Notes: a model not told the origin generated them from the sequence alone. A DNA stretch of 64,000 nt from Bacilli bacterium (GCA_050949315.1 JBMNFL010000001.1:480001-544000), one strand, 5' to 3'. Counted from the stretch's first letter, positions 1 through 14,987 are shown. Program-made: numbers and translations.

Positions 1-57
1 TTATTAAACAAAATCCCTTAAAAGTTAAGATAATATTAGTTGATATTGATTATTTTT

Positions 58-103
58 TAACAACTATTGGTTGTAAATTCTAACAACTATTGGTTGAAAA
101 ACC
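58..103. repeat. Two direct repeats, 23-bp period (TAACAACTATTGGTTG), each containing the dyad CAAC-N5-GTTG
   Basis: taacaactattggttg starts at 58 and 81, just past the rluA stop codon. Confidence 0.75.
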
Positions 104-1018
104 CTATTTGAAGAGCTTTTTAAATTCCAAAGGCAAAGGAACTTCAAAACGCAGCTTTTTTCGATTTAAAGGGTGCGTTAATTCTAAAACACTGGCATGC
201 AGACCTAAACGTTTAAAAGGACTCTGACCAGCACCATATTTCTCATCGCCGACAACTGGATGGCCAAGATGCTGCAGCTGAACACGAATCTGATTCTTGC
301 GACCTGAGGCTAAGCTTAGTTCTAACAAAGAATATGGACCCTTTTCTTTTAAAACACGATAGTGGGTAATCGCCTCGCGACCCTGCTTGCCCTTGCTTAC
401 AAAAACCACATGGGTTGAAGTCTCCGCTAGATAATTTTTTAAGGTCCCTTCTTTGCTTACTAATGTCCCATTGACCACTGCAAAATAAATTCGCTTGCTT
501 ACTAATTCATTCCACTTTTTTTGTAATAAATCGCGCACCTGTAAATTTTTAGCAAACAGCATAATTCCTGAAGTATCACGATCTAAACGATGAAGAATAA
601 AAATTTGATTTTTCGGATTTTCTTTACGAACATAGTTCATTAAAAAGTGATAAGCCGTCTTTTCTTTTTCGCGCTCTGTAGCGATACTAAGCAAGCCACT
701 CGGCTTATTAATAGCGATAAAATCCTCATCTTCATAAAGGATATCAAAAGGCGTTTTTAGTCCACTGTTCCTACCTTTTCGCATACTTTGCTTGCTAATC
801 TGCACCAGTTGCTTAGGAACTAAAAGTTGGTCAAATTGGGTAGTCACAACCCCATCAACTAAGACATGATGATTCTTTAAAAGGTTCTTAACAGTATTGC
901 GCGATTTGTCATTCATTTTCATTAACAAAAACTCTAATAAGGCCTGTTTGTTATTGACCTTAAACTCGGCACTGTAAGTCTTAATTTCGCTTTTTAAAAC
1001 CTTTTCCTTTTGCTTCAT
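104..1018 (-). CDS. RluA/RluD-family pseudouridine synthase
   Basis: S4-like N-terminus, NKPSGL, catalytic HRLDRDTSG, GRKNQIRVQL, GDEKYG. Confidence 0.95.
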   Translation of the reverse strand: MKQKEKVLKSEIKTYSAEFKVNNKQALLEFLLMKMNDKSRNTVKNLLKNHHVLVDGVVTTQFDQLLVPKQLVQISKQSMRKGRNSGLKTPFDILYEDEDFIAINKPSGLLSIATEREKEKTAYHFLMNYVRKENPKNQIFILHRLDRDTSGIMLFAKNLQVRDLLQKKWNELVSKRIYFAVVNGTLVSKEGTLKNYLAETSTHVVFVSKGKQGREAITHYRVLKEKGPYSLLELSLASGRKNQIRVQLQHLGHPVVGDEKYGAGQSPFKRLGLHASVLELTHPLNRKKLRFEVPLPLEFKKLFK

Positions 1019-1107
1019 TTTTTCTTTACCTCGGGCTTTATTGTAGCATATTCTTTCCCTTTCTTAAAATTAAGTGTTATAATTTTTTAGGTAAGGAGTG
1101 AGCAGAA

Positions 1108-1512
1108 ATGCGAATTAGAAAATCAGCGGAAGATTATTTAGAAACAATCCTTATTCTCGAGGCACGATTAGGCAATGTTCATGCTATCGATATCGCTAGT
1201 GAAATGAATTTTTCTAAACCCAGTGTCAGTGTGGCCATGAAAAACCTTAAAGAGGCGGGTTTGATAACGATTGATGAAAATGATCATATTAGCCTAACTG
1301 CTTCTGGGCATAAAATCGCCGACGCGGTCTATGAACGCCATGTCCTTTTAACCGATTTCTTTATCCTATTAGGTGTTGATGAAAAACAAGCCGAGGCCGA
1401 TGCCTGTTTAATTGAACACGACTTAAGTAATAAAAGCTTTCAAGCGATAAAAAAACTCTATAATCAATTGATTAAAAACGAAAAAGTTTTAACAAAACAA
1501 AAGGTTAAGTAA
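1108..1512 (+). CDS. DtxR/MntR-family metal-dependent transcriptional regulator
   Basis: SAEDYLETI, KPSVS HTH, YERH, DACLIEH; RBS aaggag and TGnTATAAT upstream. Confidence 0.92.
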   Translation: MRIRKSAEDYLETILILEARLGNVHAIDIASEMNFSKPSVSVAMKNLKEAGLITIDENDHISLTASGHKIADAVYERHVLLTDFFILLGVDEKQAEADACLIEHDLSNKSFQAIKKLYNQLIKNEKVLTKQKVK

Positions 1513-1514
1513 TT

Positions 1515-2207
1515 ATGGATTTTGTCGGTATCGAAAAACTCTCGCTTGTAGATTATGAAGGCAAACTGACCTGCACCTTATTTATGGCAGGTTGTAATTT
1601 TCGTTGTCCTTTTTGCCATAATGCTAGTTTAGTCTTACAAGACTATTCAATAAACCCTATCCCTTTTGAAGAAATTTTAAGTTATCTAAAAAACGCTAAA
1701 GGTAAACTTGAAGCGGTCTGTATCAGTGGTGGCGAACCAACCTTAATGCGGGATTTAAAAGAAAAGATAAGGCCAATAAAAGACTTAGGCTATCTAATTA
1801 AAATTGATACTAATGGCACTAATCCCGAACTTTTAAAAGAACTATATCAGGAAAAATTACTTGATTATGTGGCTTTAGATGTCAAAAACTGTGAGGAAGC
1901 TTATCCTGAAACCATCGGTCACAACTATCAACCCTTTGCTAATATTCAAAAATCCATCGCTTTTCTTATGAACTCCGGTATTGAGTATGAATTTCGCACT
2001 ACCTTAGTTCAAGAATTTCATAGTAGAAAGAAAATTGACGCTCTAGGAAAGATGATTAAAGGCGCCAAAAAACTCTATCTACAAAAATTCGTTGATACTG
2101 GCTCCACCATTAAAAAAGGTCTTAATCCCATTCCTTTAGAAGAAGCGAAAGAGTACCAAAAGATTTTAGAAAAATACATCCAAAAAGTAGAACTAAGAGG
2201 CTATTAA
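1515..2207 (+). CDS. nrdG: Anaerobic ribonucleoside-triphosphate reductase activating protein (radical SAM)
   Basis: GCNFRCPFCHN, SGGEPT, DTNG, YEFRTT; nrdD 2.6 kb away. Confidence 0.9.
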   Translation: MDFVGIEKLSLVDYEGKLTCTLFMAGCNFRCPFCHNASLVLQDYSINPIPFEEILSYLKNAKGKLEAVCISGGEPTLMRDLKEKIRPIKDLGYLIKIDTNGTNPELLKELYQEKLLDYVALDVKNCEEAYPETIGHNYQPFANIQKSIAFLMNSGIEYEFRTTLVQEFHSRKKIDALGKMIKGAKKLYLQKFVDTGSTIKKGLNPIPLEEAKEYQKILEKYIQKVELRGY

Positions 2208-2244
2208 AAAAGCAAATTAACTATTACTTGGTAATTAAACAAAC

Positions 2245-2274
2245 AAAAAAGTCCCGATTTAATGGGACTATTTT
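2245..2274. terminator. Probable bidirectional intrinsic terminator
   Basis: AGTCCC/GGGACT hairpin flanked by A- and T-runs between convergent genes. Confidence 0.7.
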
Positions 2275-2295
2275 ATTAGATGTTTCTTTCACGTT

Positions 2296-3567
2296 CTACG
2301 GTTTTAAACATGTTACAGGGACCACATAAACTCCATCTTTTCTCCGGTACGCAAAGGGAGCTTTGGCGCACAAAACGAGCATAAAGGCTGGTTCTTTCAT
2401 TTTGTTTGTATCGATCTTTGAAGCCAATTCTTTCAAGTTTTTTGCGCCTTCTTCAATCAAACTATCCCCACCTAATTTTATTTCAATTAAGCCATAAGAT
2501 CCGTCTCTTAAGTGAATTACTGCATCACATTCCAAGTTGTTGTTATCTCTATACTGATAAATACTACCGTCTAGGTAGTCTGCATATATTCTTAAATCAC
2601 GGATACACAAATTTTCAAAAATGAGCCCCATGGTATTTAAGTCGTTTAACAAGTCCTTTGGGCCGAGTTGTAAGGCCGCAGCAGCAATTGAAGGATCAAC
2701 AAAATATCTCACATCTGTTGTTCTAATAGCAACTTTTGACCTTAAATTTGGATTCCAAGCCGGTGAATCCTCAATAACAAAGATTTTAATTAATGCATCT
2801 CTATATGAGTAAAGCGTAGCAGGATCAAATGTGCCAGCATGATTAGCCAATACATCTTGCCTAATAGTCTCCAGGGCGGCTCTGGTTCCGACATTTCTAG
2901 CATAGGATTTTAGAAATCTTTTTGCTTTTTCTTTATCTCTTTTCACAGAATCTACCCTGCTTATGTCATTAGAGACAACGGCATCAAAATAGTCTATGGC
3001 TTGAAAAAGAGCCTGTTTCTCGGCTAACCCTACTGCTTTCGGCCAACCTCCCCTGCAAATTAGAAAGGCTATTTTCTCTAAATCGGCATCGCTTTCAGCA
3101 GATATTTCCTTATTTTCGAATAGGTCCCTGATTGCAACTTTGCCGTTTGAATCCTTAGACTCATACAAACTCATTGGTCTCATATAAAGTCTTGAAATCC
3201 TTCCGGTTCCGGTATGCATAGACTCATCTATTTTTGCAGGAACGGCAGAGCCTGTTAAAATGAATTGGCCAAATTCATCTCTCTGATCAACTTCATATCT
3301 AACCGCATTCCATAAATTTGGAGCTATCTGCCACTCGTCTATTAATCTCGGGGTCTTACCTTCCAGTAGTGTTAGCGGAGAAAGTTCAGCCATAGATTGA
3401 TACTGCTTACTCATTTCAGGTTGATCCATCGATATAAAACTACCTGCAATCTCTTTGGCGCTGGTAGTCTTGCCACACCATTTGGGTCCCTCTAGTAAAA
3501 CAGCACCTTTGGCTTCTAATCTTTCACTTAATAATTTATCTATAATCCTTGGTAAATACGTCTTCAT
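2296..3567 (-). CDS. AAA_14-type ATPase with C-terminal DUF4143 (PD-(D/E)XK-like) domain
   Basis: Walker A GPKWCGKT, Walker B LIDEWQ, LTGS, GGWP, ECDAVI..IEIK; ATG at 3567 after RBS gaggtg. Confidence 0.9.
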   Translation of the reverse strand: MKTYLPRIIDKLLSERLEAKGAVLLEGPKWCGKTTSAKEIAGSFISMDQPEMSKQYQSMAELSPLTLLEGKTPRLIDEWQIAPNLWNAVRYEVDQRDEFGQFILTGSAVPAKIDESMHTGTGRISRLYMRPMSLYESKDSNGKVAIRDLFENKEISAESDADLEKIAFLICRGGWPKAVGLAEKQALFQAIDYFDAVVSNDISRVDSVKRDKEKAKRFLKSYARNVGTRAALETIRQDVLANHAGTFDPATLYSYRDALIKIFVIEDSPAWNPNLRSKVAIRTTDVRYFVDPSIAAAALQLGPKDLLNDLNTMGLIFENLCIRDLRIYADYLDGSIYQYRDNNNLECDAVIHLRDGSYGLIEIKLGGDSLIEEGAKNLKELASKIDTNKMKEPAFMLVLCAKAPFAYRRKDGVYVVPVTCLKP

Positions 3568-3592
3568 AAAGCTCACCTCACTTCTAAGACAA

Positions 3593-3740
3593 AGAAATTA
3601 TAACATGTTTTCAAGTATTCGTGCAACTTTTATTCAAGTATTATTACAACTTTCATTCCAGTGTTTGAGCCTTTTTCATTCCAGTGTTTGAGCATTTTTC
3701 ATTCCAGCGTTTGAGAAAGCACATTCCAATAATTCAGCTT
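3593..3740 (-). repeat. Six-unit, ~23-bp-period direct repeat array overlapping the promoter (TTGCAC-18-TATAAT, extended -10) of the ATPase gene
   Basis: ttc(a/c)a cores at 3610, 3633, 3656, 3679, 3702, 3724; sense-strand unit ctcaaacacTGGAATgaaaaagg. Confidence 0.85.
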
Positions 3741-3923
3741 TAAAAAACGAGGGGAAGGATTGATGTATTACTTAGAATTATCAAAAAATCCAATCAAAAA
3801 AATCTAAAACAACTTTAAGCAACACAACAATTTTCGAATTTCACGCTTTGTAAAAACTTCGAAACCCTATTCGTTACTATGTTTTTCCTTTTTAATATTA
3901 TTATGACATCCCCTTAGGGAATC

Positions 3924-4829
3924 TTATAAGTTATTAAGGTAATTAACTGCCGCCAAAGCGGCACTGGTGCCATCTGCTAACGCCGTTGTTAACTGCCTTG
4001 TTTTTTTATTACGGCAGTCACCGGCGACAAAAAGACCAGCGACTTCAGTTAAACAGGATTCATCGGCTACAACATAGCCATCTTGATTTAAAGTTAATAG
4101 ATTAGTAAAGGGCTCATTAACGGGAACTTGACCAATACAGACAAAAACAGCAGCAACCTTAAATTCCACTAACTCGGAAGTTTTAGTATTACGAAAAACC
4201 GCCTTTTCAAGTTCTTCTTCCCCTACTAATTTATTTAGAAGAATCTCTTTAGTAATGGTGATATTTGGGCTTGCTAAAACCTTTTCAACTAAGACTTCTT
4301 CGGCGAAAAAACGGTCAAACAGTAGACAAAGATGGACCTTTTTACAAATATTTGCTAAGAGTAAAGCCGACTGTAGAGCACTGTTGGCATCACCGATCAA
4401 ACAGACCTCTTGATCCGCATAAAATGGACCATCGCAGACCGCACAATAAGACAGTCCACGCCCTACCCATCTTTCCTCATCTTCAAGACCAATTTTCTTA
4501 TGTTCCGCCCCAGTTGCCACTATCACAGCCTGAGCTTCATAATCATTAAATTTGCACTTAACTTTAAAGATTTCAGCCTTTTCAATTGCTACCACTTCAT
4601 CTAATTCAAACTCAATACCTAATGCTAAAACCTGCTCAAAGAGACGATTGGCTAAGTCAGCACCGCTCAAAGAAGAAAGGGCAGGATAGTTTTCCACCCG
4701 TGGGGAACTTGCTATCTGCCCACCGATAGTCTCCTTTTCTATCAGCAGTACTCTTTTGCCATTTCTTAAGGCATAAATAGCGGCGCCTAGACCAGCTGGG
4801 CCACCGCCAATTATGATAATGTCGTACAT
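3924..4829 (-). CDS. trxB: Thioredoxin reductase-like flavoprotein with atypical NAD(P)H-binding motifs
   Basis: GGGPAG FAD motif, VENYP, redox CAVC, AGDC; GGGNSA replaced by GDANSA and HRRD by LLFD. Confidence 0.85.
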   Translation of the reverse strand: MYDIIIIGGGPAGLGAAIYALRNGKRVLLIEKETIGGQIASSPRVENYPALSSLSGADLANRLFEQVLALGIEFELDEVVAIEKAEIFKVKCKFNDYEAQAVIVATGAEHKKIGLEDEERWVGRGLSYCAVCDGPFYADQEVCLIGDANSALQSALLLANICKKVHLCLLFDRFFAEEVLVEKVLASPNITITKEILLNKLVGEEELEKAVFRNTKTSELVEFKVAAVFVCIGQVPVNEPFTNLLTLNQDGYVVADESCLTEVAGLFVAGDCRNKKTRQLTTALADGTSAALAAVNYLNNL

Positions 4830-4833
4830 TTTA

Positions 4834-7209
4834 TTAATGTTTAACCGTCTCTATATACTGCCTGATAAAACTGGCATTTTCATAACGGTCATACTCTTGT
4901 TTAGCATTAGGAACTAGTAAAGTTGGCGCCTTCATAATCTTATAATTAAGGCTTAATTCTTTGTTTTCTTCAGCATCGATAAGTCTATATTTTATGCCCG
5001 CTTTTTTCAGCATCATCTGGGCCATTTGACAATTGGGACAGGTTTTGGTCGTGAAAAGCAGTAACTGCTCATCATCAGCATGAATGACACTTTCTTCACA
5101 AATCTCTTTATTTACGTGATGGTGTTGACCCAGAATGGAATTTTCGGGGACATAAACCATCCGCTCTTTAAACTCTTCAGTTTTCCCGGCATTCCAGTTT
5201 TGAACAGGACGGTAGTACCCAGTAATCCGACTATAGATCTCCGTCTTCTCACCACAAACCGGACAAACCACTTCTTCCCCTGCTAAGTAGCCATGACGTT
5301 GGCAGACAGAATAAGTCGGCGAGATGGTGTAGTATGGTAATTTATAATTTTCGGCAATGGTTCTAACAAGCTTAGCGGTAGCCTGCCAAGAAGGCAGTTT
5401 TTGACCAAGGAAAGTATGAAAAACCGTTCCCGAGGTATAGAGGGTCTGAAGCTCATCTTGAACGTCTAAGGCCTTAAAAAGGTCGTCAGTAAAATTAACT
5501 GGTAAATGAGAACTGTTGGTATAGTAAGGTACCGTATCATCTTGCGAAGCTGTGATGATATCCGGATAACGCGTCCGATCGTGTTTAGCCAAACGATAGG
5601 CCGTCGATTCCGCCGGCGTGGCTTCAAGATTATAGAGATCGCCATATTGCTCTTGATAATCCGCCAATTTGTTCCGCATGAAATTCAAAACCTCTTTAGT
5701 AAATTCAACCGACTTCTTGTGGGTTAGATCTAAACCAAGCCAATTAGCATTCAAACAGGCCTCATTCATACCTACTAAGCCAATGGTTGAAAAGTGGTTC
5801 TCAAAGGTTCCTAGATATCTTTTGGTATAAGGATAAAGACCGGCTTCTAAGAACTTCGTGATGACCTCGCGTTTAATTTTTAAAGAACGCGCGGCCAAAT
5901 TCATCATCTTTTCTAAGCGAACATAAAAGTCTTCTTTATTGCTGGCAAGATAAGCAATGCGCGGCATATTGATGGTCACCACACCCACCGAGCCTGTACT
6001 CTCACCACTGCCAAAGAAACCGCCGGATTTCTTTCTTAACTCCCGTAAATCCAAACGCAAGCGGCAGCACATCGAACGCACATCACTTGGCTCCATATCA
6101 CTATTAATATAATTACTAAAATAAGGTGTGCCATACTTAGCCGTCATGGTAAACAATAAGCGATTGTTTTCGGTATCCGACCAATCAAAATCTTTGGTTA
6201 TTGAATAGGTTGGAATGGGATATTGGAAACCACGACCATTGGCATCGCCTTCAATCATAATCTCAATAAAGGCCTTGTTGATCATCGCCATTTCCTTAAC
6301 GCAATCCTTATACTTGAAAGGCATTTCCTTGCCCTTAACAATAGCTGGTAATTCGGCTAAATCATCAGGAACAACCCAGTCCAAGGTAATGTTGGTAAAA
6401 GGGGCTTGTGTTCCCCAACGACTTGGAGTATTAACCCCATAGACAAAAGACTGAATGCATTGCTTAGTCTCTTTATAACTTAAATTATCTACCTTGACAA
6501 AGGGTGCCAGATAAGTATCAAAAGAAGAGAAAGCTTGGGCTCCAGCCCATTCATTCTGCATGATGCCTAAAAAGTTAGTCATTTGGTTACAAAGCGTTGA
6601 TAGGTGCGCTGCTGGGGAAGAAGTTATCTTCCCAGGAATGCCGCCTAGTCCTTCGACAATCAATTGTCTGAGCGACCAACCAGCACAGTAACCAGTTAAC
6701 ATTGATAAATCATGAATATGGATATCCGCATTTTTATGGGCGGCTTCTATCTCGTTATCGTAAACTTCAGAAAGCCAGTAGTTAGCGGTAACCGCCCCCG
6801 AGTTAGATAAGATTAAACCACCGACGGAATAGGTAACCGTGGAATTTTCCTTAACCCGCCAATCGTTAATCTTGAGGTAGTTATTAACAGTATCTTTATA
6901 ATCTAAGATTGTCGATTTGACATTTCTTATATTTTCATGTTGCTTCCGATAGAGGATGTAGGCTTTCGCTACATCATCATAAGCCGCTTGAATTAAAACG
7001 ACTTCCACGCTATCTTGGATGTCCTCAACCGCGATGCATTCTTCTTTGATTTTGGGTTCAAAGTTCGCGGTCACTCTTAAGGACAGCAGCTCGATAATGT
7101 CCTCGCTATATTGACGATTGACGGCTTCAAAAGCCTTCTTAATCGCGTTTTCAATTTTGGTGATGTCAAAGGAGACAATGCTCCCATCTCTTTTTAAAAC
7201 TCTAATCAT
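4834..7209 (-). CDS. nrdD: Class III (anaerobic) ribonucleoside-triphosphate reductase with N-terminal ATP cone and fused C-terminal glutaredoxin/NrdH-like domain
   Basis: VLKRDG ATP cone, SMCCRL, EATPAES, CQRH..CPVC, glycyl-radical RITGYY, then TKTCPNC...KAPTL. Confidence 0.95.
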   Translation of the reverse strand: MIRVLKRDGSIVSFDITKIENAIKKAFEAVNRQYSEDIIELLSLRVTANFEPKIKEECIAVEDIQDSVEVVLIQAAYDDVAKAYILYRKQHENIRNVKSTILDYKDTVNNYLKINDWRVKENSTVTYSVGGLILSNSGAVTANYWLSEVYDNEIEAAHKNADIHIHDLSMLTGYCAGWSLRQLIVEGLGGIPGKITSSPAAHLSTLCNQMTNFLGIMQNEWAGAQAFSSFDTYLAPFVKVDNLSYKETKQCIQSFVYGVNTPSRWGTQAPFTNITLDWVVPDDLAELPAIVKGKEMPFKYKDCVKEMAMINKAFIEIMIEGDANGRGFQYPIPTYSITKDFDWSDTENNRLLFTMTAKYGTPYFSNYINSDMEPSDVRSMCCRLRLDLRELRKKSGGFFGSGESTGSVGVVTINMPRIAYLASNKEDFYVRLEKMMNLAARSLKIKREVITKFLEAGLYPYTKRYLGTFENHFSTIGLVGMNEACLNANWLGLDLTHKKSVEFTKEVLNFMRNKLADYQEQYGDLYNLEATPAESTAYRLAKHDRTRYPDIITASQDDTVPYYTNSSHLPVNFTDDLFKALDVQDELQTLYTSGTVFHTFLGQKLPSWQATAKLVRTIAENYKLPYYTISPTYSVCQRHGYLAGEEVVCPVCGEKTEIYSRITGYYRPVQNWNAGKTEEFKERMVYVPENSILGQHHHVNKEICEESVIHADDEQLLLFTTKTCPNCQMAQMMLKKAGIKYRLIDAEENKELSLNYKIMKAPTLLVPNAKQEYDRYENASFIRQYIETVKH

Positions 7210-7529
7210 ATTTTGTCACTCCTCGACTAGGTAATGCCAAGTCTAACAATTGGTTTTTTGCCTGTCAACAACTTTACTTAATTTTTTTAAGAAATTTTTT
7301 TTGTTTTTAAAAAGGGCCCTATTTTAAGTGTAATTTTTAGTAGTTTTTTGGAAGTCCATAAAGAAACCTCCATATTAAAATAGCCGATATTACCGACTGT
7401 TTTTGAATTATTTTTTTATGAAAACCCTTCCAGCCTCTAATACTATGCAAGTCACAGGATTAAAAACATAAAAAGCTGTAATTAAAAACTTTTGGTCTTA
7501 AATATTAGGAAATTCTTAGTAAAAGTAAA

Positions 7530-8297
7530 TCAAGTTCCTTGTTTTTGTTTCCACGCTTTTTGGATGAGATCTAAGACTTTTTCGGCCTCATCAAGGTAAT
7601 CTAAAGAGTAAAAATATTGACCTGAACTCGCGCTTTTATCCTTAAAATCAAAGTAGAGATGCTGGTAACCTTTTTTATCTTTTTTAAGATGAATAAAACG
7701 CAGTTGCTCATACATAATCTCATAGCGCTTAGGACTGCCAACTTTAAAAATATTCTCCCGCACCAAACGCGTTTTGGTAACATAGTATTTTATTTCAAAA
7801 TCCGCATGACTATACTTGCCGATGATTAAATACAAGCCCACGCCTGTTAGGATAAAGGTACCTACTAAAAAGATAATAGTTATCACTTTAAAGCCAAAAA
7901 GAATTAAGCCTATTGCTAAAAGGGCAAGACCTAAAAAGATTAAAAGTCCGGCTAAAAAATTAGTCTGCTTGCGCACTCTTTTAGAAAAGTCCACACAGGG
8001 CTTACCTGACCATAAAATCTCTTCATTAACTTCACTAGCATATTGGCTTTTTGCTATGCTTGGCATAAAGTCGCTAGTTTTACTAGAGTTCTTCTCTTCT
8101 TCTAAACTAGCTAAATAAGAGCTCAAAGGAATATTAAAGAGCTTAAGCAATTTTAAAACCTGCTCATCAGGAATTTTTAAACTACCCTTCTCCCAGGCAC
8201 TAACGGTTTTTCTTTCCTCGCCTAACATGTCCGCTAACTCGCTTTTGCTAAGCCCCATGTTAAGACGCGCTTCTTTAATCTGATCTTTAAAAAGCAT
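7530..8297 (-). CDS. XRE-family HTH protein with two TM helices and a C-terminal soluble (bPH-like) domain
   Basis: IKEARLNMGLSKSELADMLG..VSAWEKG; hydrophobic hairpin; EEILWSGKP and YYVTKTRLV. Confidence 0.75.
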   Translation of the reverse strand: MLFKDQIKEARLNMGLSKSELADMLGEERKTVSAWEKGSLKIPDEQVLKLLKLFNIPLSSYLASLEEEKNSSKTSDFMPSIAKSQYASEVNEEILWSGKPCVDFSKRVRKQTNFLAGLLIFLGLALLAIGLILFGFKVITIIFLVGTFILTGVGLYLIIGKYSHADFEIKYYVTKTRLVRENIFKVGSPKRYEIMYEQLRFIHLKKDKKGYQHLYFDFKDKSASSGQYFYSLDYLDEAEKVLDLIQKAWKQKQGT

Positions 8298-8332
8298 TAC
8301 CTCACCTCAAACTAATAAAAGGAAGTAGCGGT

Positions 8333-8803
8333 CTACTTCCCCTTTTGTTCTTTATCTTCTTTTAACTCTGCGGCTTTCTTTGCCGCTTCTTCTTTCCGCT
8401 GATAATAGTTCTTATAACCTTCCTTTTTGTTATCGCCCTCATCCCATTTGCGCCCTTTTAAAATAAAGACACTAAACATGAAGGCACAGGCTATAACTAG
8501 CATAATTAAAGGTAGGATAATCTTGGCTGGCAAAAGAGCTGTCCAAACAATGGCTAAAACACAAAAGATAAGTAAAACGGCACCGCCAACTATTTTGGCT
8601 TTCTTAACACTCAAACTATTACTCTGATCGGTAGTCGCATCAATGAGAACGGCTACCCCCCAAAAGCCCGTGACAACCGCAACAAAAGTTGCTAACTTAA
8701 ACCAACCAAAAGCCTCGGGTGCTACAGTTGCTAAAATCCAAAGCACCGCGGCAACTAAAAGACCAATAACAGCTACTAATTGAAAAGCAAATCTCCGTTT
8801 CAT
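8333..8803 (-). CDS. Hypothetical 4-TM membrane protein with charged C-terminal tail
   Basis: Four hydrophobic segments; tightly coupled to upstream gene. Confidence 0.75.
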   Translation of the reverse strand: MKRRFAFQLVAVIGLLVAAVLWILATVAPEAFGWFKLATFVAVVTGFWGVAVLIDATTDQSNSLSVKKAKIVGGAVLLIFCVLAIVWTALLPAKIILPLIMLVIACAFMFSVFILKGRKWDEGDNKKEGYKNYYQRKEEAAKKAAELKEDKEQKGK

Positions 8804-8805
8804 AT

Positions 8806-9909
8806 CTATTTACCTCCAAAAAAGATTAAGACGATTAACGCCACAACTACTAAAGCTACTAAAACTACTATACCCACTTTAAGCACTGATAAGGGGGTCT
8901 TACCCGTAACCTTACCATTATGACCATTGACATAAAAGTTATAGAGTTTACTCTTCCAATGACAATGACCGATATAAAGTGGTAAAAGCAAATATTTATA
9001 AGTCATTTTTGAACAGGCGGTTTCCACATTCAAATAATCGACAACATCATAACTATAACGAGCAAGAATCGCCTCTCTTATCTTACGATCAATAATTCTT
9101 TTAGCATAATCCCAAGCCTCTTCTCCCGTTCTTTCAGTAGCCGTTGCTACAAAACCGTGGAGAAATTCTGAAGAGTATTGCTGACTCTTATTGGTATCAA
9201 AAGGTTGCAACTTATCAAGAGTCTGCTGACCGATTTTGGAAGAAGCATGGACTAAGATATCGTCAAAGAAAATATCAATATTACCATGGACTCTAAACCA
9301 ACGCGTCTTAGTAACGGTTGTTGTCTTCCCGTTAACTCTCCTTTGTTCGGTATAATGCTTTCCTAAGCGCCCCTTATAAGAAGAGGCCGTATCGGTATCA
9401 AAAGTAAAGGCTGGGGAATAAACGCCATTTAATCCTTCAGGCTTAACACTTCTTTTAAAAGCGATTGGGGCAAATAATTTCTTTTTGGCCCAGGCGATAA
9501 CTTTTTCAGTAGCGACTTTCACATCGATAAGAAAAGGGACGACACCATTAGGTTTAACACCTGATAGTTCTTCAACTTCTACGACATTAGTCGTGCCACA
9601 AAAAGGACAAATCTTAGCAATTTCATTCCTATTTAAGACTTCGGAAGCCCCACAATTATTACAACGATAAATATGGGTTTCTTTGCCCCACTCATTGTCC
9701 TGCTTCTGAATTAACTTACCAAAGGATTGTTCAACACTAATATTGCCAAAATTGATTTCTTTCTTACTGCCACAATAAGGGCACTTTAAAGCTAAATCAT
9801 TGGGCGAATATTCCATGTTGGCGCCACAGACTGGACACTTAGCAACCTCGGTTGTGTTTTCGGTTTCTTCAAAAACTTCTTGTTTTTGTTCTTCTTGCAC
9901 CTTATTCAC
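8806..9909 (-). CDS. Zinc-ribbon membrane-anchored protein (YdjG-like)
   Basis: CPVCG, CPYCG, CNNCG, CPFCG pairs; VNGHNGKVTGKTP then C-terminal TM. Confidence 0.8.
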   Translation of the reverse strand: MNKVQEEQKQEVFEETENTTEVAKCPVCGANMEYSPNDLALKCPYCGSKKEINFGNISVEQSFGKLIQKQDNEWGKETHIYRCNNCGASEVLNRNEIAKICPFCGTTNVVEVEELSGVKPNGVVPFLIDVKVATEKVIAWAKKKLFAPIAFKRSVKPEGLNGVYSPAFTFDTDTASSYKGRLGKHYTEQRRVNGKTTTVTKTRWFRVHGNIDIFFDDILVHASSKIGQQTLDKLQPFDTNKSQQYSSEFLHGFVATATERTGEEAWDYAKRIIDRKIREAILARYSYDVVDYLNVETACSKMTYKYLLLPLYIGHCHWKSKLYNFYVNGHNGKVTGKTPLSVLKVGIVVLVALVVVALIVLIFFGGK

Positions 9910-11019
9910 CTACTCGGCAATTTTGCTGCCACATTCGGGACAAAACTTCGTCCCCGCCTCTAACTCTTTCTCACATTTTGGACAGGTTAACTTTAAAGAA
10001 GTCCCGCATTCTGGACAAAAGCGGGCGTTTTCACTAACCGCCGCCCCACACTTAGGACAAGACTTACCTGTCGGTTTACCACATTCAGGGCAGAATTTAA
10101 CTCCCACTTTAATCATCTTGCCACAAGAAGGACAAGGCATGGTCGCTTCGGCTGCCTTAGGCGAGGCCATCTCTTGGGTCATACTACCAAAGGCTTTACC
10201 TAGGTTAGCCCCAACACCAAGACCAATTCCAGCTCCCATCATCGTGCCAGCGGCCCCAGGATTCTTAGCCGCTTCCTTCAAAGCTTCGGCCTGAGCAAGT
10301 TGAGTGTAGATATCGATATTCTTTCTCATCATCCCTAGCCGTGTCTGCTCATCAAGCGCCTTTTCAAGTTCTTCAGGCATCGAGAAGTTTTCAAAATTAA
10401 CCTTGGCAAGTTCAATACCAATATCCTTTAAATGCGATGACAAAACTGTTTGAACATAGGTTCCTAATTCAACTAGGTTGGCCGCCATATCTAAAACGGG
10501 AATCTTGGATTCACCAACGGCATCGGAAATGTTGGTAACCACAATTGAACGCAGCCAATCAGTTATATCTTCTGTTTTATAAGTGGAATTGGTGCCCGAT
10601 AATTCTTTCATAAATAGATAGGCATCTTGAACCTTAAAAGTATAAGTACCATAAGCTCTTACTCTAACCGCCCCAAAATCCTTATCTCGGATGATAATCG
10701 GATTGGTCGTCCCCCACTTGTTATTGGTGAACATCTTAGTATTGACAAAATAAACATCCGATTTAAAGGGGCTTTCAAAGCCGTACTTCCATGATAACAA
10801 TTTGGTGATCAAGGGGATGTTATCCGTATCTAAAGTATAGGTTCCGGGTTCAAAAACATCAGCCATTCTGCCCTTATCAGCAAAGATGCAAACTTGGGAA
10901 TCGCGAACGATTACCTTGGAGCCACGACTAATAAAATCTCTTTTAATGTTGTACTCATATTTGTAGACGATGGTATTTGAGGAACTATCCTTCCATTCAA
11001 TTACCTTTAATAATCCCAT
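9910..11019 (-). CDS. SPFH (band 7-like) domain protein with C-terminal double zinc ribbons (YdjI-like)
   Basis: KWGTTNPI, VRAYGTY, MPEELEKALD, glycine-rich linker, repeated CPxCG/FCPECG; ATG 11019 after RBS aggagg. Confidence 0.88.
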   Translation of the reverse strand: MGLLKVIEWKDSSSNTIVYKYEYNIKRDFISRGSKVIVRDSQVCIFADKGRMADVFEPGTYTLDTDNIPLITKLLSWKYGFESPFKSDVYFVNTKMFTNNKWGTTNPIIIRDKDFGAVRVRAYGTYTFKVQDAYLFMKELSGTNSTYKTEDITDWLRSIVVTNISDAVGESKIPVLDMAANLVELGTYVQTVLSSHLKDIGIELAKVNFENFSMPEELEKALDEQTRLGMMRKNIDIYTQLAQAEALKEAAKNPGAAGTMMGAGIGLGVGANLGKAFGSMTQEMASPKAAEATMPCPSCGKMIKVGVKFCPECGKPTGKSCPKCGAAVSENARFCPECGTSLKLTCPKCEKELEAGTKFCPECGSKIAE

Positions 11020-11101
11020 AATTCTTCCTCCTTTTAGCAAGCTAACAATGTTTGTTCTTAAAATAATCACATACAATAAAAGTATACTATGCTTCTTTAA
11101 T

Positions 11102-11127
11102 AAAAAAAAGAACTTTTATAAAGTTCT
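11102..11127 (-). terminator. Possible leftward intrinsic terminator
   Basis: AGAACTTT/AAAGTTCT hairpin followed by a T-run on the minus strand. Confidence 0.5.
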
Positions 11128-11417
11128 CTATTTTTGACATCCCTATCACGGCCTTGAAAAGATTATAAATATTAGAATAAGAGAGCGCTAATATACCAAA
11201 ATTAAATTCCTACTCGCAAAACTCTTAATTTTTTCAAGTTTTTCGAGTAGAGTTTGTTTGAGTGAGAAATATGTTATTAAATATAATATATTTTTCAGTG
11301 TTTATGAAAGCATTCTGTTATTTGGACTAACTTTGATTAGTAAATAAATAAGATACCTAGATATATAGGAATAAAGAATAGATATAATAGATATATTAAA
11401 ATATAAAATGATATAAT

Positions 11418-11515
11418 CTGCAATTTATGGAATATAATCCTTACATTTTTTGGAATAAAACCCTTGCAATTTATGGAATGAAACGCTTGCAATTTATGGA
11501 ATTGAGTTGTATAAT
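11418..11515 (+). repeat. Four-unit, 23-bp-period direct repeat array overlapping the promoter TTGCAA-17-TATAAT
   Basis: TGGAAT cores at 11428, 11451, 11474, 11497; unit ttgcaatttaTGGAATgaaacgc; -35 at 11487, -10 at 11510. Confidence 0.88.
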
Positions 11516-11532
11516 GTGGTCGGGTGATATAA

Positions 11533-12792
11533 ATGGCAACTATTAATTATAGAAAAAGATTAATTGAATCAAGAATTAAAAAGACCATGGGCTTTAGTGG
11601 TGGTGTAGTCATTGAAGGGGCTAAATGGGTTGGTAAATCAACAACAGCAAGTAGATTTGCGAATACGGTGGTGAAACTGCAAGATCCTATCGTAAGAGAA
11701 AAGTATAAAACTTTCGCAACCATTTCCAAAGAAAAAGTTTTAGAAGGAAAAAAACCTATTTTATTTGACGAATGGCAAGATGTTCCAGAAATTTGGGATT
11801 TTATTCGTATTGATATTGATGATTATAATCATAAAGGTGCCTATCTTCTAACTGGTTCAACAAGAAAACAAAACGTAAAAACATATCACACCGGAACAGG
11901 AAGAATAAACTCTGTTTATATGCGACCAATGAGTTTATATGAAAGTGGCGAGTCTAACGGATTGGTCTCTTTAAACGATTTATTTAATCATCAAAACAAC
12001 ATTCCAAGTGTTGCAATATCTAATGTTAGCATAGATGATATAACAAAATTAATTTGTAGAGGAGGCTGGCCAGGAAGTCTAGATTTAGAAGAAGACTTGC
12101 AATTTGAGCTTCCGAAACATCTTTTAAAAAGTATTATCGAGAAAGACTCTGATGAGATTGATGGAATATCAAAAGATAAAGAAAAATTGGAAAAAGTTAT
12201 TAGGAGTTATGCAAGAAACGTTTCTACATTAGCTTCTGATTCAACCATCTACAAAGATCAATCAACAAGAGAAATAGTAAGTGTTAAAACTTTTGATACC
12301 TATATGAACGCTTTAAAAAGATTATTTATTGTTGAAGATGTTTTACCTTGGTCGGTAAATATTAGAAGTTCTAGTAGACTTAGAAAAGGCAGTAAAAGAC
12401 AATTTGTAGATCCTAGTATTGCTGTTGCTGCTCTTGACCTTTCTCCTAAAAAATTGTTAAACGATTTTGAAACTTTTGGCTTTTTATTTGAATCTATTGC
12501 TACCAGAGATATTAGAATTTATGCAGAAGAACTTGAGGGTAAAGTATATTATTATAATGACTCGACCGGACTTGAAGTGGATTTAATTGTTGAATTAAGG
12601 GACGGCTCATGGGGAGGTATTGAAGTTAAGCTAGGGAGTAACGAATTAGATAAAGCCTGTTCTAATTTACAAAAATTAAGCAGTATCTCAAGCGTTAAAC
12701 CTTCTTTTCTTATGATACTAACCAATACTCAAATGGCTTATCAAAGACCAGATGGCGTATATGTTGTACCACTGGGTTGTTTAAAACCCTAA
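11533..12792 (+). CDS. AAA_14-type ATPase with DUF4143 domain (distant paralog of 2296-3567)
   Basis: GAKWVGKS, LFDEWQ, LTGS, GGWP, EVDLIV..IEVK, same C-terminal DGVYVVP.CLKP; AT-rich. Confidence 0.9.
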   Translation: MATINYRKRLIESRIKKTMGFSGGVVIEGAKWVGKSTTASRFANTVVKLQDPIVREKYKTFATISKEKVLEGKKPILFDEWQDVPEIWDFIRIDIDDYNHKGAYLLTGSTRKQNVKTYHTGTGRINSVYMRPMSLYESGESNGLVSLNDLFNHQNNIPSVAISNVSIDDITKLICRGGWPGSLDLEEDLQFELPKHLLKSIIEKDSDEIDGISKDKEKLEKVIRSYARNVSTLASDSTIYKDQSTREIVSVKTFDTYMNALKRLFIVEDVLPWSVNIRSSSRLRKGSKRQFVDPSIAVAALDLSPKKLLNDFETFGFLFESIATRDIRIYAEELEGKVYYYNDSTGLEVDLIVELRDGSWGGIEVKLGSNELDKACSNLQKLSSISSVKPSFLMILTNTQMAYQRPDGVYVVPLGCLKP

Positions 12793-12906
12793 ATTTTAGA
12801 AAGTTTTGCTAATTTTTTCTTTTGTTCCAAACTGTGTTTCATAATAAAAACTCCCTTTTCATTGTGCCAACTTTGGTCCAAATTAAGGGAGCCTTTTTAT
12901 ATTAAG

Positions 12907-12982
12907 TGGTGGAGATGACGAGGCTCGAACTCGCTACCTCCTCGTTGCGAACGAGGCGCTCTCCCAGATGAGCTACACCCCC
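12907..12982 (-). tRNA. tRNA-Ala(CGC)
   Basis: 76-nt cloverleaf GGGGGTG...CATCTCCACCA, G3:U70 Ala identity pair, anticodon loop TT-CGC-AA, encoded CCA. Confidence 0.96.
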
Positions 12983-13031
12983 ACAAAGCGTTTTTATGAT
13001 AGCAAAAAACGCTCTACTTGACAAGTTGAAA

Positions 13032-13784
13032 CTACAAATCTAAAAGTAGGGCTACTGGGCAATGATCACTGCCATATATCTCATCATGAATTAAACTATC
13101 TTTGAGGTAGGGAAGAAGCCCTTTGGAAAGCACAAAATAATCAATCCGCCAACCAATACCCTTGGGGCGGGCAAAAGAACGATAACTCCACCAGCTATAC
13201 TTCACTCGCGTTGGATATAGATGACGGAAGCTATCGATAAAACCCGCTTCTAAAAGCAAGGAAAACTTCTCGCGTTCCTCTATGGTAAAACCTGGATTGC
13301 GCGTATTAATAGAGGGGTTTTTTAAGTCAATCTCTTGGTGAGCGACATTTAAATCCCCACAAATAATAACCTCTTTTTGACTCTTTAATTCAATTAAATA
13401 GGCCCTGAGAACATCTTCAAAGGTCTGCCGATAATCTAACCTTAATAAGCCCTCTTGAGAATTCGGTGAATAAACCGTCACTAAAAAGAATTGGGGGTAT
13501 TCAAGGGTAATCACTCTACCCTCATCTAAATAGTCGCCATTAATGCCATAACTAGCCTTTAGGGGTTTATGTTTAGTAAAAATTGCTGTCCCAGAATAAC
13601 CTTTTCTTTCCGCACTATTCCAATACTGATAGTAACCATCTAAAACTAGGCTGACCTGCTCTTCTTGAGCCTTTATTTCTTGCAAACAAAAGAAGTCGGC
13701 AGCATAATCTTTAAAAAAATCTAAAAAGCCCTTTTTTAAGCATGCTCGAATTCCGTTGACATTCCACGAAACAAATTTGAGCAT
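13032..13784 (-). CDS. xth: Exodeoxyribonuclease III / AP endonuclease
   Basis: SWNVNGIRA, LQEIK, GDLNVAH, YSWWSYR, WRIDY, SDHCP. Confidence 0.96.
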   Translation of the reverse strand: MLKFVSWNVNGIRACLKKGFLDFFKDYAADFFCLQEIKAQEEQVSLVLDGYYQYWNSAERKGYSGTAIFTKHKPLKASYGINGDYLDEGRVITLEYPQFFLVTVYSPNSQEGLLRLDYRQTFEDVLRAYLIELKSQKEVIICGDLNVAHQEIDLKNPSINTRNPGFTIEEREKFSLLLEAGFIDSFRHLYPTRVKYSWWSYRSFARPKGIGWRIDYFVLSKGLLPYLKDSLIHDEIYGSDHCPVALLLDL

Positions 13785-14987
13785 CTAGGCTTTCTCCTTT
13801 TCATCGAGAATCTCGGAGATACGAGAAGTTTGTAATTGACTGAACTTAGTGGTGATTTTACCAACCGTGGTCGACACTTCTCCTGATTCTTTGGAAAGTT
13901 TTTCAATGCTATTAGCAAGCTTTTCCCATCTTTGACCAAAGCGCTCAAAGTCTTGGCTGAGTCTGTTTAGTTGTAGACCGATTTCTTTGGCATACTTACT
14001 GCGCTCATAATCAATGCGCACAATGCGATAAGAGGCAATCAAAGGAATAATGGTCGTTGGTGAAACGATGAGTACACCTTTTTTATGTGCATACTCAATC
14101 AAGTCCCCTAAACGAGAGTGCAGCAAGGCTAAAACACCATCACTTGGTAAAAACATAATGGCAAAATCTGATGTTTGACCCGTGACGATATACTTATCTG
14201 CCATATCATCAATATGCTTTTTAACATCAACTTTTAAAGCTTTTATGGTGGCTTCTTCCTCGGCCGCACTCAACTTTTCTTCAAATAATTTACGATAAGC
14301 ACTAAAGGGGAATTTGGAATCAATACAAATATCCCCATTAGGCATAAAGATAACAGAATCAACGCGCACTTTACCCTCACGTTTAGGATTTTTAAATTCA
14401 TACTGCATCGCATAGAGCTTGGAATTTTCACCAAAGGTGGCGTAGAGAATCTGCTCTAATTGATATTCACCAAAGGCCCCACGCTGTTGATTATTGCTTA
14501 AAATATCTTGGAGGGAAATCATCTCATTCGATAGACCTTCAATCTTTTGTTGAGCCTGTTCCATGACCGCCATGCTTTCCTTAATTTTACCAAAGGTTTC
14601 ATTCGTCGCTTCAAAGCCCTTGCTCAAGCGTTCTTCCACCTTCTCATTAATAGCCCCCATCTTCTTATCAACACTCTCAGTAAGGCTAGTAAATTCCTGC
14701 TGTAAATTCTCTGCTAATTTGCCTTTAAACTCAACTAACTCCTTGTTAACAGCCACCCGAAAATCCCCTAGGGTCTGCCCTACTTGATTGGCGTTTTCTA
14801 CTAACTGTTTATTAAGTTTACTTGCTAAATTAAAGACTTCTTCATTTAATTCTTTACTGAGTTGCTTCTTAAAATCATCGAGACTAATCTCTCTTAAATC
14901 CTGTTTCTTTCTTACCAAAAGGAAGATGAGAATGACAATTATTAAAGCCTGTAAAACTAAACTTATTATTACTAGTGTGTCGGTCAT
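13785..14987 (-). CDS. rmuC: DNA recombination protein RmuC
   Basis: N-terminal TM, coiled coil, RGAFGEYQLE, IDSKFP, FAIMFLPS, SPTT. Confidence 0.93.
   Translation of the reverse strand: MTDTLVIISLVLQALIIVILIFLLVRKKQDLREISLDDFKKQLSKELNEEVFNLASKLNKQLVENANQVGQTLGDFRVAVNKELVEFKGKLAENLQQEFTSLTESVDKKMGAINEKVEERLSKGFEATNETFGKIKESMAVMEQAQQKIEGLSNEMISLQDILSNNQQRGAFGEYQLEQILYATFGENSKLYAMQYEFKNPKREGKVRVDSVIFMPNGDICIDSKFPFSAYRKLFEEKLSAAEEEATIKALKVDVKKHIDDMADKYIVTGQTSDFAIMFLPSDGVLALLHSRLGDLIEYAHKKGVLIVSPTTIIPLIASYRIVRIDYERSKYAKEIGLQLNRLSQDFERFGQRWEKLANSIEKLSKESGEVSTTVGKITTKFSQLQTSRISEILDEKEKA

Follow-up and report, generated by a model that had tools for sequence, protein, structure and literature searches.

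A 23-bp repeat array shared by AAA_14–DUF4143 ATPase-nuclease genes suggests a self-reading one-gene module

We describe two solitary genes in a 64,000-nt stretch of a Bacilli bacterium genome (GCA_050949315.1 JBMNFL010000001.1:480001-544000; the window) that encode AAA_14 + DUF4143 ATPase-nucleases and that are each preceded by a head-to-tail array of 23-bp units ending in the gene's own promoter (gene 1 and gene 2; Table 1). Across relatives the period is conserved while the unit sequence differs by lineage. Our favored interpretation, which we judge moderately probable, is that a predicted winged helix in the encoded protein binds the units head to tail and cooperatively represses its own gene, the whole forming a mobile one-gene module. 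A repeat array read by the product of the adjacent gene is a known kind of layout; what is new is its attachment to a major uncharacterized protein family, for which we know of no function or DNA target.

Tandem Repeats Finder, run on the whole 64 kb, returned 31 rows, and those of period 23 lay only at 3610-3662 (2.3 copies, 83% matches), 3651-3715 (2.8 copies, 95% matches), and 11419-11502 (3.7 copies); no other row had a period of 20–26. The pattern CAANNNNTGGAAT occurs seven times in the window against 1.09 expected, a count reached in 0/100 shuffles. Six of the seven matches fall within the two arrays, and the remaining one lies inside gene 2 at 12001-12013(-). The array of gene 1 is longer than the original prediction described, with six in-phase rows: three near-identical units at 3715-3647 (CTCAAAC(G/A)CTGGAATGAAA, that is, CTCAAACrCTGGAATGAAA), a degenerate distal unit at 3738-3716, and two degenerate promoter-proximal units at 3646-3601 (ATACTTGAA, ..ATACTTGAAw..). 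A gap of ~45 bp separates the strong units from the working −35 downstream of them, and the degenerate units fill it, bridging to the promoter; the −35 itself (TTGCAC) falls within the last row. A consensus promoter scan, which requires 4/6 matches in the −35, called no gene 1 promoter, and the putative one given here is a reading of the sequence. In gene 2, whose array forms a direct-repeat family with spacings of 23, 23, and 23, the last unit opens with TTGCAA at 11487 and thereby supplies the −35.

Both arrays lie on the strand of their own gene, with the same orientation and the same geometry to the −10, which the last unit abuts. The predicted common architecture—same orientation, same period, ending in the promoter—is thus seen in both the repeat calls and the register rows, the gene 1 promoter being the one element that was read by eye. 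Because the arrays are upstream of the −10, they lie outside the mRNA made from that promoter. An Rfam search of window positions 1-14000 (E up to 1) returned only a tRNA and a chance miRNA match, with no RNA element at the arrays. Immediately upstream of the gene 2 array, within a 450-bp leader of GC ~0.28, there is also a period-30 AT-rich direct repeat (11358-11417; TAGATATAT..), which may represent decayed units or a separate element.

The association extends across the family. One search of genome contigs with gene 2 as the query gave 43 loci (L-numbered; 32–87% identity) that span Methanomassiliicoccales archaea, Saccharibacteria, Bifidobacterium, Coriobacteriia, Bacteroidales, and many metagenome-assembled genomes (MAGs) of Bacillota/Tenericutes. 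For 37 loci and the two window genes (39 regions), each period between 10 and 40 was scored over the 200 nt that precede the start codon; L020, L021, L025, L026, L029, and L040 were left out because they lack a start codon or have <200 nt of DNA upstream. Period 23 scored best in 37 regions, period 24 in one (L027), and period 14 in one (L041), and scores reached at least 30 in 32/39. Control windows, 1356 taken elsewhere in the loci and 638 taken in the window, had a 99th-percentile score of 29. Among the loci controls, period 23 was best less often than each of the eight commonest periods, the least of which was best in 52/1356. Where loci controls scored at least 30 at period 23, they came from L019, in a weak stretch of low complexity, or from L040:1400-1571 (two overlapping windows), where a second, tandem paralog has an array built on a different unit of its own. 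Only 4/638 window controls reached 30, all lying on the two arrays, and Tandem Repeats Finder on the loci agrees with the period scoring. The enrichment of upstream periodicity that the original prediction proposed to check, with a best period of 23 or 24 in 38/39 regions, is therefore present.

Further records point the same way. A tblastn search of plasmids with gene 1 gave 242 records, from which six homologs were examined together with four unverified metagenomic contigs from a phage collection. Period 23 was best in 3/6 plasmid homologs—from Bacteroides (57% identity), Prosthecochloris (30%), and Sulfitobacter (26%)—and in 4/4 contigs, that is, in 7/10 further records. The sample of relatives also includes Chlorobiota. 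Several loci carry tandem clusters of diverged paralogs (three genes each in L003 and L013, two in L040; also L018 and L026), and each clustered paralog has its own array where the upstream region is readable. Adjoining genes of other AAA_14 + DUF4143 subfamilies have upstream elements of another kind, namely period-32 direct repeats (L003 2843-2927; L006 and L008 ~2735-2830) or a promoter-overlapping palindrome (L013 3430-3480, second paralog), and a palindrome likewise overlaps the promoter of the Treponema plasmid homolog (L049 ~1440-1480). A private upstream element thus seems to be the general principle, with the 23-bp step specific to this subfamily. Two of the surveyed genes are damaged: that of L039 is split into two ORFs, and that of L026 is broken at its N terminus and retains one recognizable unit.

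In-phase counting across 45 regions (L041 included) gave three units in 25, four in 12, five in 5, and nine in 1, the minimum of three being set by construction. In 21/45 regions a perfect TATAAT is no more than about one unit away from the end of the array, a count that has no shuffled control. In the archaeal loci L027, L033, and L039 an AT-rich TATA-like box directly follows the last unit, so the design holds across two transcription machineries.

Unit sequence, by contrast with the period, turns over completely. Units within one array match one another by up to 100% (L027, L033, L039, L042), whereas between arrays of proteins sharing <50% identity unit similarity is 0.44–0.48 vs. 0.47 for shuffled units. 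The core CAA-N4-TGGAAT, which the original prediction took to be common to both window arrays, is exact in only 5/42 array consensuses but occurs with at most two mismatches in 18/42 vs. 2.5 expected; it is a drifting ancestral consensus and a feature of a clade, not a family constant. Within the five-member clade of gene 2, anchoring on the −10 and stepping by 23 nt brings all 18 units into register, each with a core of 15 nt that is conserved (TGCAAwwTAtGGAAT) and a tail of 7 nt that varies. In 5/5 members the proximal unit begins 23 nt before the −10 and provides the −35. This pairing of conserved core and variable tail argues for a selected binding site over plain slippage.

Units and proteins also covary, as the original prediction had proposed to examine. 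Unit similarity correlated with protein identity (Mantel r = 0.57, reached in 0/2000 permutations), a value that shared ancestry may inflate. When each of three protein regions was examined by partial Mantel test with the other two controlled, residues 212-290 retained a correlation (r = 0.21; 2/2000), whereas the ATPase region (−0.003) and the nuclease region (−0.015) did not. Unit similarity therefore tracks the predicted winged-helix region and neither of the catalytic regions, which is supportive, not decisive.

That region lies in the middle part of the protein. Both window proteins exceed the curated Pfam gathering cut-offs for AAA_14 (PF13173; cut-off 27) and DUF4143 (PF13635; 28.1), gene 1 with 53.2 bits (E 3.8e-14) and 101.9 bits (E 3.9e-29) and gene 2 with 51.5 and 109.5 bits, respectively; they share 41% identity (176/426) over their full length (E 2e-118). 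No NCBIfam family model matches either protein, and a PDB sequence search found no related solved homolog. The family is large, with 6567 clusters at 50% identity matching at E ≤1e-3 and 698 at E ≤1e-30 among 1.84 billion representatives searched. In a 127-sequence alignment G29, G34, and K35 are invariant, and D79, E80, E320, D343, E348, and D350 are at least 90% conserved; on our reading of the alignment, gene 2 has Walker A at G29-K35, Walker B at D79-E80, and a PD-(D/E)xK-type D350 followed by E-x-K at ~363-365. The P-loop (Walker A GxxxxGK[ST], Walker B hhhhDE) and the nuclease motif both read as intact.

An AlphaFold2 model of the gene 2 protein (pLDDT 95.7, pTM 0.94) found its nearest Foldseek neighbors in the archaeal AAA+ ATPases 2qen (E 2e-7) and 2fna (E 6e-7), over ~375 aligned columns. 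Orc1/Cdc6 structures followed (1w5t, 2qby, and 2v1u; E 4e-5 to 1e-4, TM 0.27–0.32), of which 2qby and 2v1u are DNA complexes, and further matches included clamp-loader and NB-ARC ATPases and the CARF-nucleases Cdn1 and Card1. A winged helix is predicted at about residues 212-290. When residues 205-300 were folded alone, nearly all listed Foldseek matches were winged-helix DNA binders—SSV1 F-93, RTP, Fur/PerR, SmtB/CzrA, and MarR—at E 0.05–0.25.

The array travels with the gene. Among 17 close relatives, shared DNA (72–98% identity) runs from the last array units to 0–24 nt past the stop codon, as in the L002/L004 (1413-2755, 91%) and L004/L013 (1279-2778, 90%) pairs. Flanks are unrelated except in paralogs and in the L006/L008 pair, and left edges vary. 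Blocks of array, promoter, and gene measuring ~1.35–1.5 kb and sharing 80–91% nucleotide identity occur in MAGs labeled as different orders or phyla, labels that may be unreliable. No other gene is conserved beside the module, so any cognate factor must travel inside it. Together with the array upstream of 38/39 regions and 7/10 further records, these boundaries bear out the proposal of a self-contained one-gene module, and they suggest that it is horizontally mobile. Transposon-like ends were considered and rejected: neither window gene is flanked by terminal inverted repeats or by a second copy of the unit.

A conserved ~90-nt element upstream of the gene 1 array may also be part of the module, as a leader, a second promoter, or an end. 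It aligns by blastn at 74–82% identity with L004 1279-1360, L010 643-737, L013 1277-1360 and ~3320-3400, and L014 1279-1360, and it precedes arrays despite differing upstream genes, one of the genes belonging to another subfamily. The pattern ATGTCATAATWAT taken from it is present in 5/53 loci, with four of those matches upstream of arrays, and once in the window. The element has no Rfam match, and no convincing hairpin or small ORF was seen by eye on its alignments (A1 and A3).

In the module that we propose, three to six 23-bp operator units stand head to tail, the last of them contains the −35 and spacer of the promoter, and the gene behind it encodes an AAA+ ATPase/winged-helix/PD-(D/E)xK nuclease protein. 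Since no other gene is conserved, the design spans bacteria and archaea, and units are private, the module itself must supply the reader, for which the winged helix is the sole candidate; with the covariation, its predicted fold suggests that the protein binds the array. The winged helix would read the ~15-bp core of each unit. Because the 23-bp step is strictly kept despite complete sequence turnover, it points to contacts between neighboring bound protomers, which would assemble head to tail in the cooperative and probably nucleotide-dependent manner that AAA+ proteins typically show. With the promoter-proximal unit occupied, RNA polymerase in bacteria or TBP/TFB in archaea would then be blocked, and the gene would repress itself, holding a nuclease that is potentially dangerous to a low set point. 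A distinct unit sequence in each lineage and each paralog would insulate modules from one another.

Several observations weigh against this proposal. Most units lie upstream of the −35, the usual position for an activator, so repression is not the sole reading, and in gene 1 it is the strong units that stand away from the −35. The winged helix is faint when taken in isolation: the domain model has a pLDDT of 77 and no Foldseek match at E ≤0.001, Pfam on the isolated middle part returns DUF4143 only and no helix-turn-helix family, and the Protein Atlas scores for residues 205-300 (0.80–0.82; HTH_5, HTH_IclR, DUF234) are leads only. The covariation is supportive and no more because shared ancestry can inflate Mantel-type tests. 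The loci were found with gene 2 words and are phylogenetically related, so that 38/39 does not count independent events, and MAG taxonomic labels may be wrong. There are also exceptions: no array precedes the gene of L041 (32% identity), and none of period 23 precedes the Thermus HB8 pTT27 homolog (L047); in the Agrobacterium plasmid homolog (25%) the signal is weak and of period 22; and in place of an array the Treponema plasmid homolog has a palindrome with 18-bp arms.

The protein-bound array could instead be an activating or loading platform. An AAA+ oligomer would assemble on it, in the manner of DnaA, Orc1, or enhancer-binding proteins, and would switch the promoter on in positive feedback, or would be stored there and launched for a nuclease job; we regard this as unlikely. 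The three best units of gene 1 are centered well upstream of its promoter, and the nearest folds include the initiators Orc1/Cdc6. Expression can also be induced in the family: a table in PMC4406477 lists a 6.6-fold increase in the presence of plasmid DNA for TT_P0211, an AAA_14 + DUF4143 gene of Thermus thermophilus. The fixed distance from the −10 at which the proximal unit covers the −35 and spacer in 5/5 members of the gene 2 clade is, however, typical of occlusion, and promoters with near-consensus −10 boxes, such as those with the perfect TATAAT counted above (again with no shuffled control), should not need an activator. Self-repression remains our preferred reading, at the strength given at the outset.

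A further account gives the array a role beyond its promoter, and we think its chances are similarly slim. The stack would be the protein's cognate "home" DNA, and the protein–DNA pair would define a one-gene conflict system. The AAA+ nuclease would be parked on its own units as a filament in 23-bp register. Once that contact was disturbed, through titration or invading DNA, through module loss (addiction), or in the course of nuclease-driven copying into new genomes, the nuclease would be released or activated. If true, this would explain both the module blocks in differently labeled MAGs and the private unit of each paralog.

Mobility or addiction alone could also be the function of the array, as a site for homing- or transposition-like spread or as a DNA antitoxin that keeps the nuclease inactive, so that a cell losing the module would die. 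The array-plus-gene-only blocks at 80–91% identity across MAGs labeled as different orders or phyla would fit, as would the tandem paralog clusters, the conserved nuclease motif, and the position of gene 2 as a compositional outlier adjoining a tRNA gene. Yet the far ends of both window genes bear no unit copy or inverted repeat, no target-site duplication was seen, the Pfam scan found no recombinase or transposase domain, the left edges of shared blocks vary, and a small gene can be transferred horizontally without any dedicated mechanism. This account strikes us as quite improbable.

We give very little credence to the idea that the encoded protein does not read the repeats, which would then be host-factor sites or neutral slippage products in AT-rich promoters. 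Tandem repeats do homogenize by slippage without selection. The same period is nevertheless found in bacteria and archaea with unrelated unit sequences and with nearly empty controls, the core is conserved while the linker varies, similarity tracks the winged-helix region only, and the array moves with the gene between hosts.

Arrays of ~two-turn direct repeats placed before the gene of their reader are familiar from iteron Rep (~22 bp), parR/parC, and omega-type systems, in which they overlap the promoter and mediate autoregulation and an incompatibility-like specificity. The period-23 arrays fit an iteron-type arrangement (~17–23-bp tandem direct repeats upstream of the gene), a resemblance of layout only. 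The notion that they are replication-origin iterons or a centromere-like site of an integrated element, with an initiator- or partition-type protein, can draw on this classic layout of 3–9 direct repeats at a ~22–23-bp step and on the fold likeness to Orc1/Cdc6, but it is the least credible of those considered, given two copies within 10 kb of one another among housekeeping genes of one chromosomal window, tandem paralogs elsewhere, and a C-terminal nuclease that has no place in such systems. Unlike iteron Rep (WH1-WH2) and Par proteins, the window proteins have no Rep or Par family match in Pfam or NCBIfam, nor one to Cdc6, Orc, or another initiator family, and the module is chromosomal and consists of one gene in which an ATPase and a nuclease are fused to a predicted DNA reader. 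No origin features were evident at the arrays, in an analysis that included no search aimed at AT-rich unwinding elements or DnaA boxes.

Other parallels to the proposed self-reading protein are AAA+ proteins that carry their own DNA reader and bind repeat arrays beside their own gene. Orc1/Cdc6, which recognizes origin recognition boxes, combines an AAA+ ATPase with a winged helix, and the modeled protein, whose winged helix is a prediction, resembles it in fold by Foldseek. DnaA, an AAA+ protein with a helix-turn-helix reader, binds DnaA boxes at its own dnaA promoter and autoregulates. Unlike these, the module protein has an additional C-terminal nuclease, exists as many paralogs per genome, and is paired with private units that follow one another strictly head to tail every 23 bp, the last of them in the promoter. 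The nearest solved folds, 2qen (PABY2304) and 2fna (SSO1545), belong to the archaeal ATPase family PF01637 at ~14% identity, and a neighboring paralog gives a weak PF01637 match; proteins of that family lack the DUF4143 nuclease part. To our knowledge their function is likewise undefined and no cognate repeats are known for them.

Both window proteins match, over their full length, the PADLOC model of PDC-S01 (PDLC04790; gene 1 residues 1-421, E 1.1e-58; gene 2 residues 5-417, E 4.2e-61), a system defined by protein hidden Markov models only, whose AAA_14 + DUF4143 architecture corresponds to COG1373. As summarized in PMC12988326, PDC-S01 is a single-gene defense candidate in which an ATPase is fused to a PD-(D/E)xK-type domain, and it ranks fourth in frequency among defense candidates across prokaryotes, unvalidated. 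In a preprint (bioRxiv 10.1101/2024.09.26.614923), one PDC-S01 gene was challenged in E. coli B with T4, T5, and T7, and the four candidates reported as protective do not include it. A defense role of the nuclease is thus a candidate function only. Within the openly available PDC-S01 and AAA_14 + DUF4143 literature, we found no published description of upstream repeat arrays; subscription journals and bioRxiv supplements lay outside that search.

As predicted, both window genes are solitary among housekeeping-type genes, whose Pfam names include NrdD, Pyr_redox_2, radical SAM (activase-like), SPFH/zinc ribbon, Exo_endo_phos, and RmuC, together with a tRNA-Ala gene. By these names there is no evident defense island around them, although the neighbors were not scanned against PADLOC. 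Deviant codon usage had been claimed for both genes; it holds for gene 2, whose GC3 of 0.205 is the lowest among the 35 ORFs that reach 250 aa or more (mean 0.347, SD 0.045), and not for gene 1, whose 0.333 is ordinary for the window. The low-GC stretch around gene 2 ends at the tRNA-Ala(CGC) gene (12907-12982, minus), 115 nt downstream of gene 2, which is a possible integration landmark. The start codon of gene 1 is taken as the ATG at 3567, just preceded by GAGGTGA; its longest ORF extends to a GTG at 3576.

Three further features of the window were recorded. Downstream of gene 2, a 55-nt stretch (12831-12883) is 84% identical, in inverted orientation, to L015 2853-2907 downstream of a homolog, and it contains a promoter-like TTGGCA-18-TATTAT and a mini-ORF beginning MKHS. 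The NrdD gene (4834-7209, minus) has a C-terminal glutaredoxin/thioredoxin-like extension at residues ~698-780 and is followed by a thioredoxin-reductase-like Pyr_redox_2 gene. A 2240-aa ORF (14998-21720, minus) has no Pfam match at E ≤1e-5.

Table 1. Positions of the two genes, their arrays and promoters, and associated features in the 64,000-nt window
Feature	Position	Strand	Basis or remark
Gene 1, AAA_14 + DUF4143 ATPase-nuclease	2296..3567	minus	423 aa
Gene 1 array, six in-phase 23-nt rows	3601..3738	minus	Tandem Repeats Finder, register printout, direct-repeat family D1
Putative gene 1 promoter, TTGCAC-18-TGtTATAAT	3597..3626	minus	Read from sequence; −35 at 3626-3621, −10 at 3602-3597
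Conserved ~90-nt element upstream of gene 1 array (..GGATGTCATAATAAT..AGTAAC..GGGTTTC../GGGTTTCAGAGC..)	3818..3911	minus	blastn, alignments A1 and A3
Gene 2, AAA_14 + DUF4143 ATPase-nuclease	11533..12792	plus	419 aa
Gene 2 array, four in-phase 23-nt units, core TTGCAATTTATGGAAT, variable 3' part	11418..11509	plus	Tandem Repeats Finder, register printout
Gene 2 promoter, TTGCAA-17-TATAAT	11487..11515	plus	Promoter scan, 10/12 matches; −10 at 11510-11515
Low-GC stretch (0.28–0.33 vs. 0.38–0.42 around)	11080..12900		Composition profile; holds gene 2, its array, and the 450-bp AT-rich leader
Terminator-like hairpin	2250..2269	readable on both strands	Terminator scan; between radical-SAM gene and 3' end of gene 1

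For the family, the module-sized blocks of horizontal gene transfer raise the question of whether these are defense genes or selfish elements. If the module represses itself as we propose, heterologous tests may fail in either case: when the native array and promoter are left out of the clone, and when both are included and so keep the gene repressed. The many protein–operator pairs form a natural set for deriving a winged-helix recognition code, and mutually insulated pairs could be possible orthogonal regulators. The conserved, lineage-specific 23-bp array is the first predicted ligand for the AAA_14 + DUF4143 family, and it enables direct tests of binding, spacing dependence, and autoregulation.

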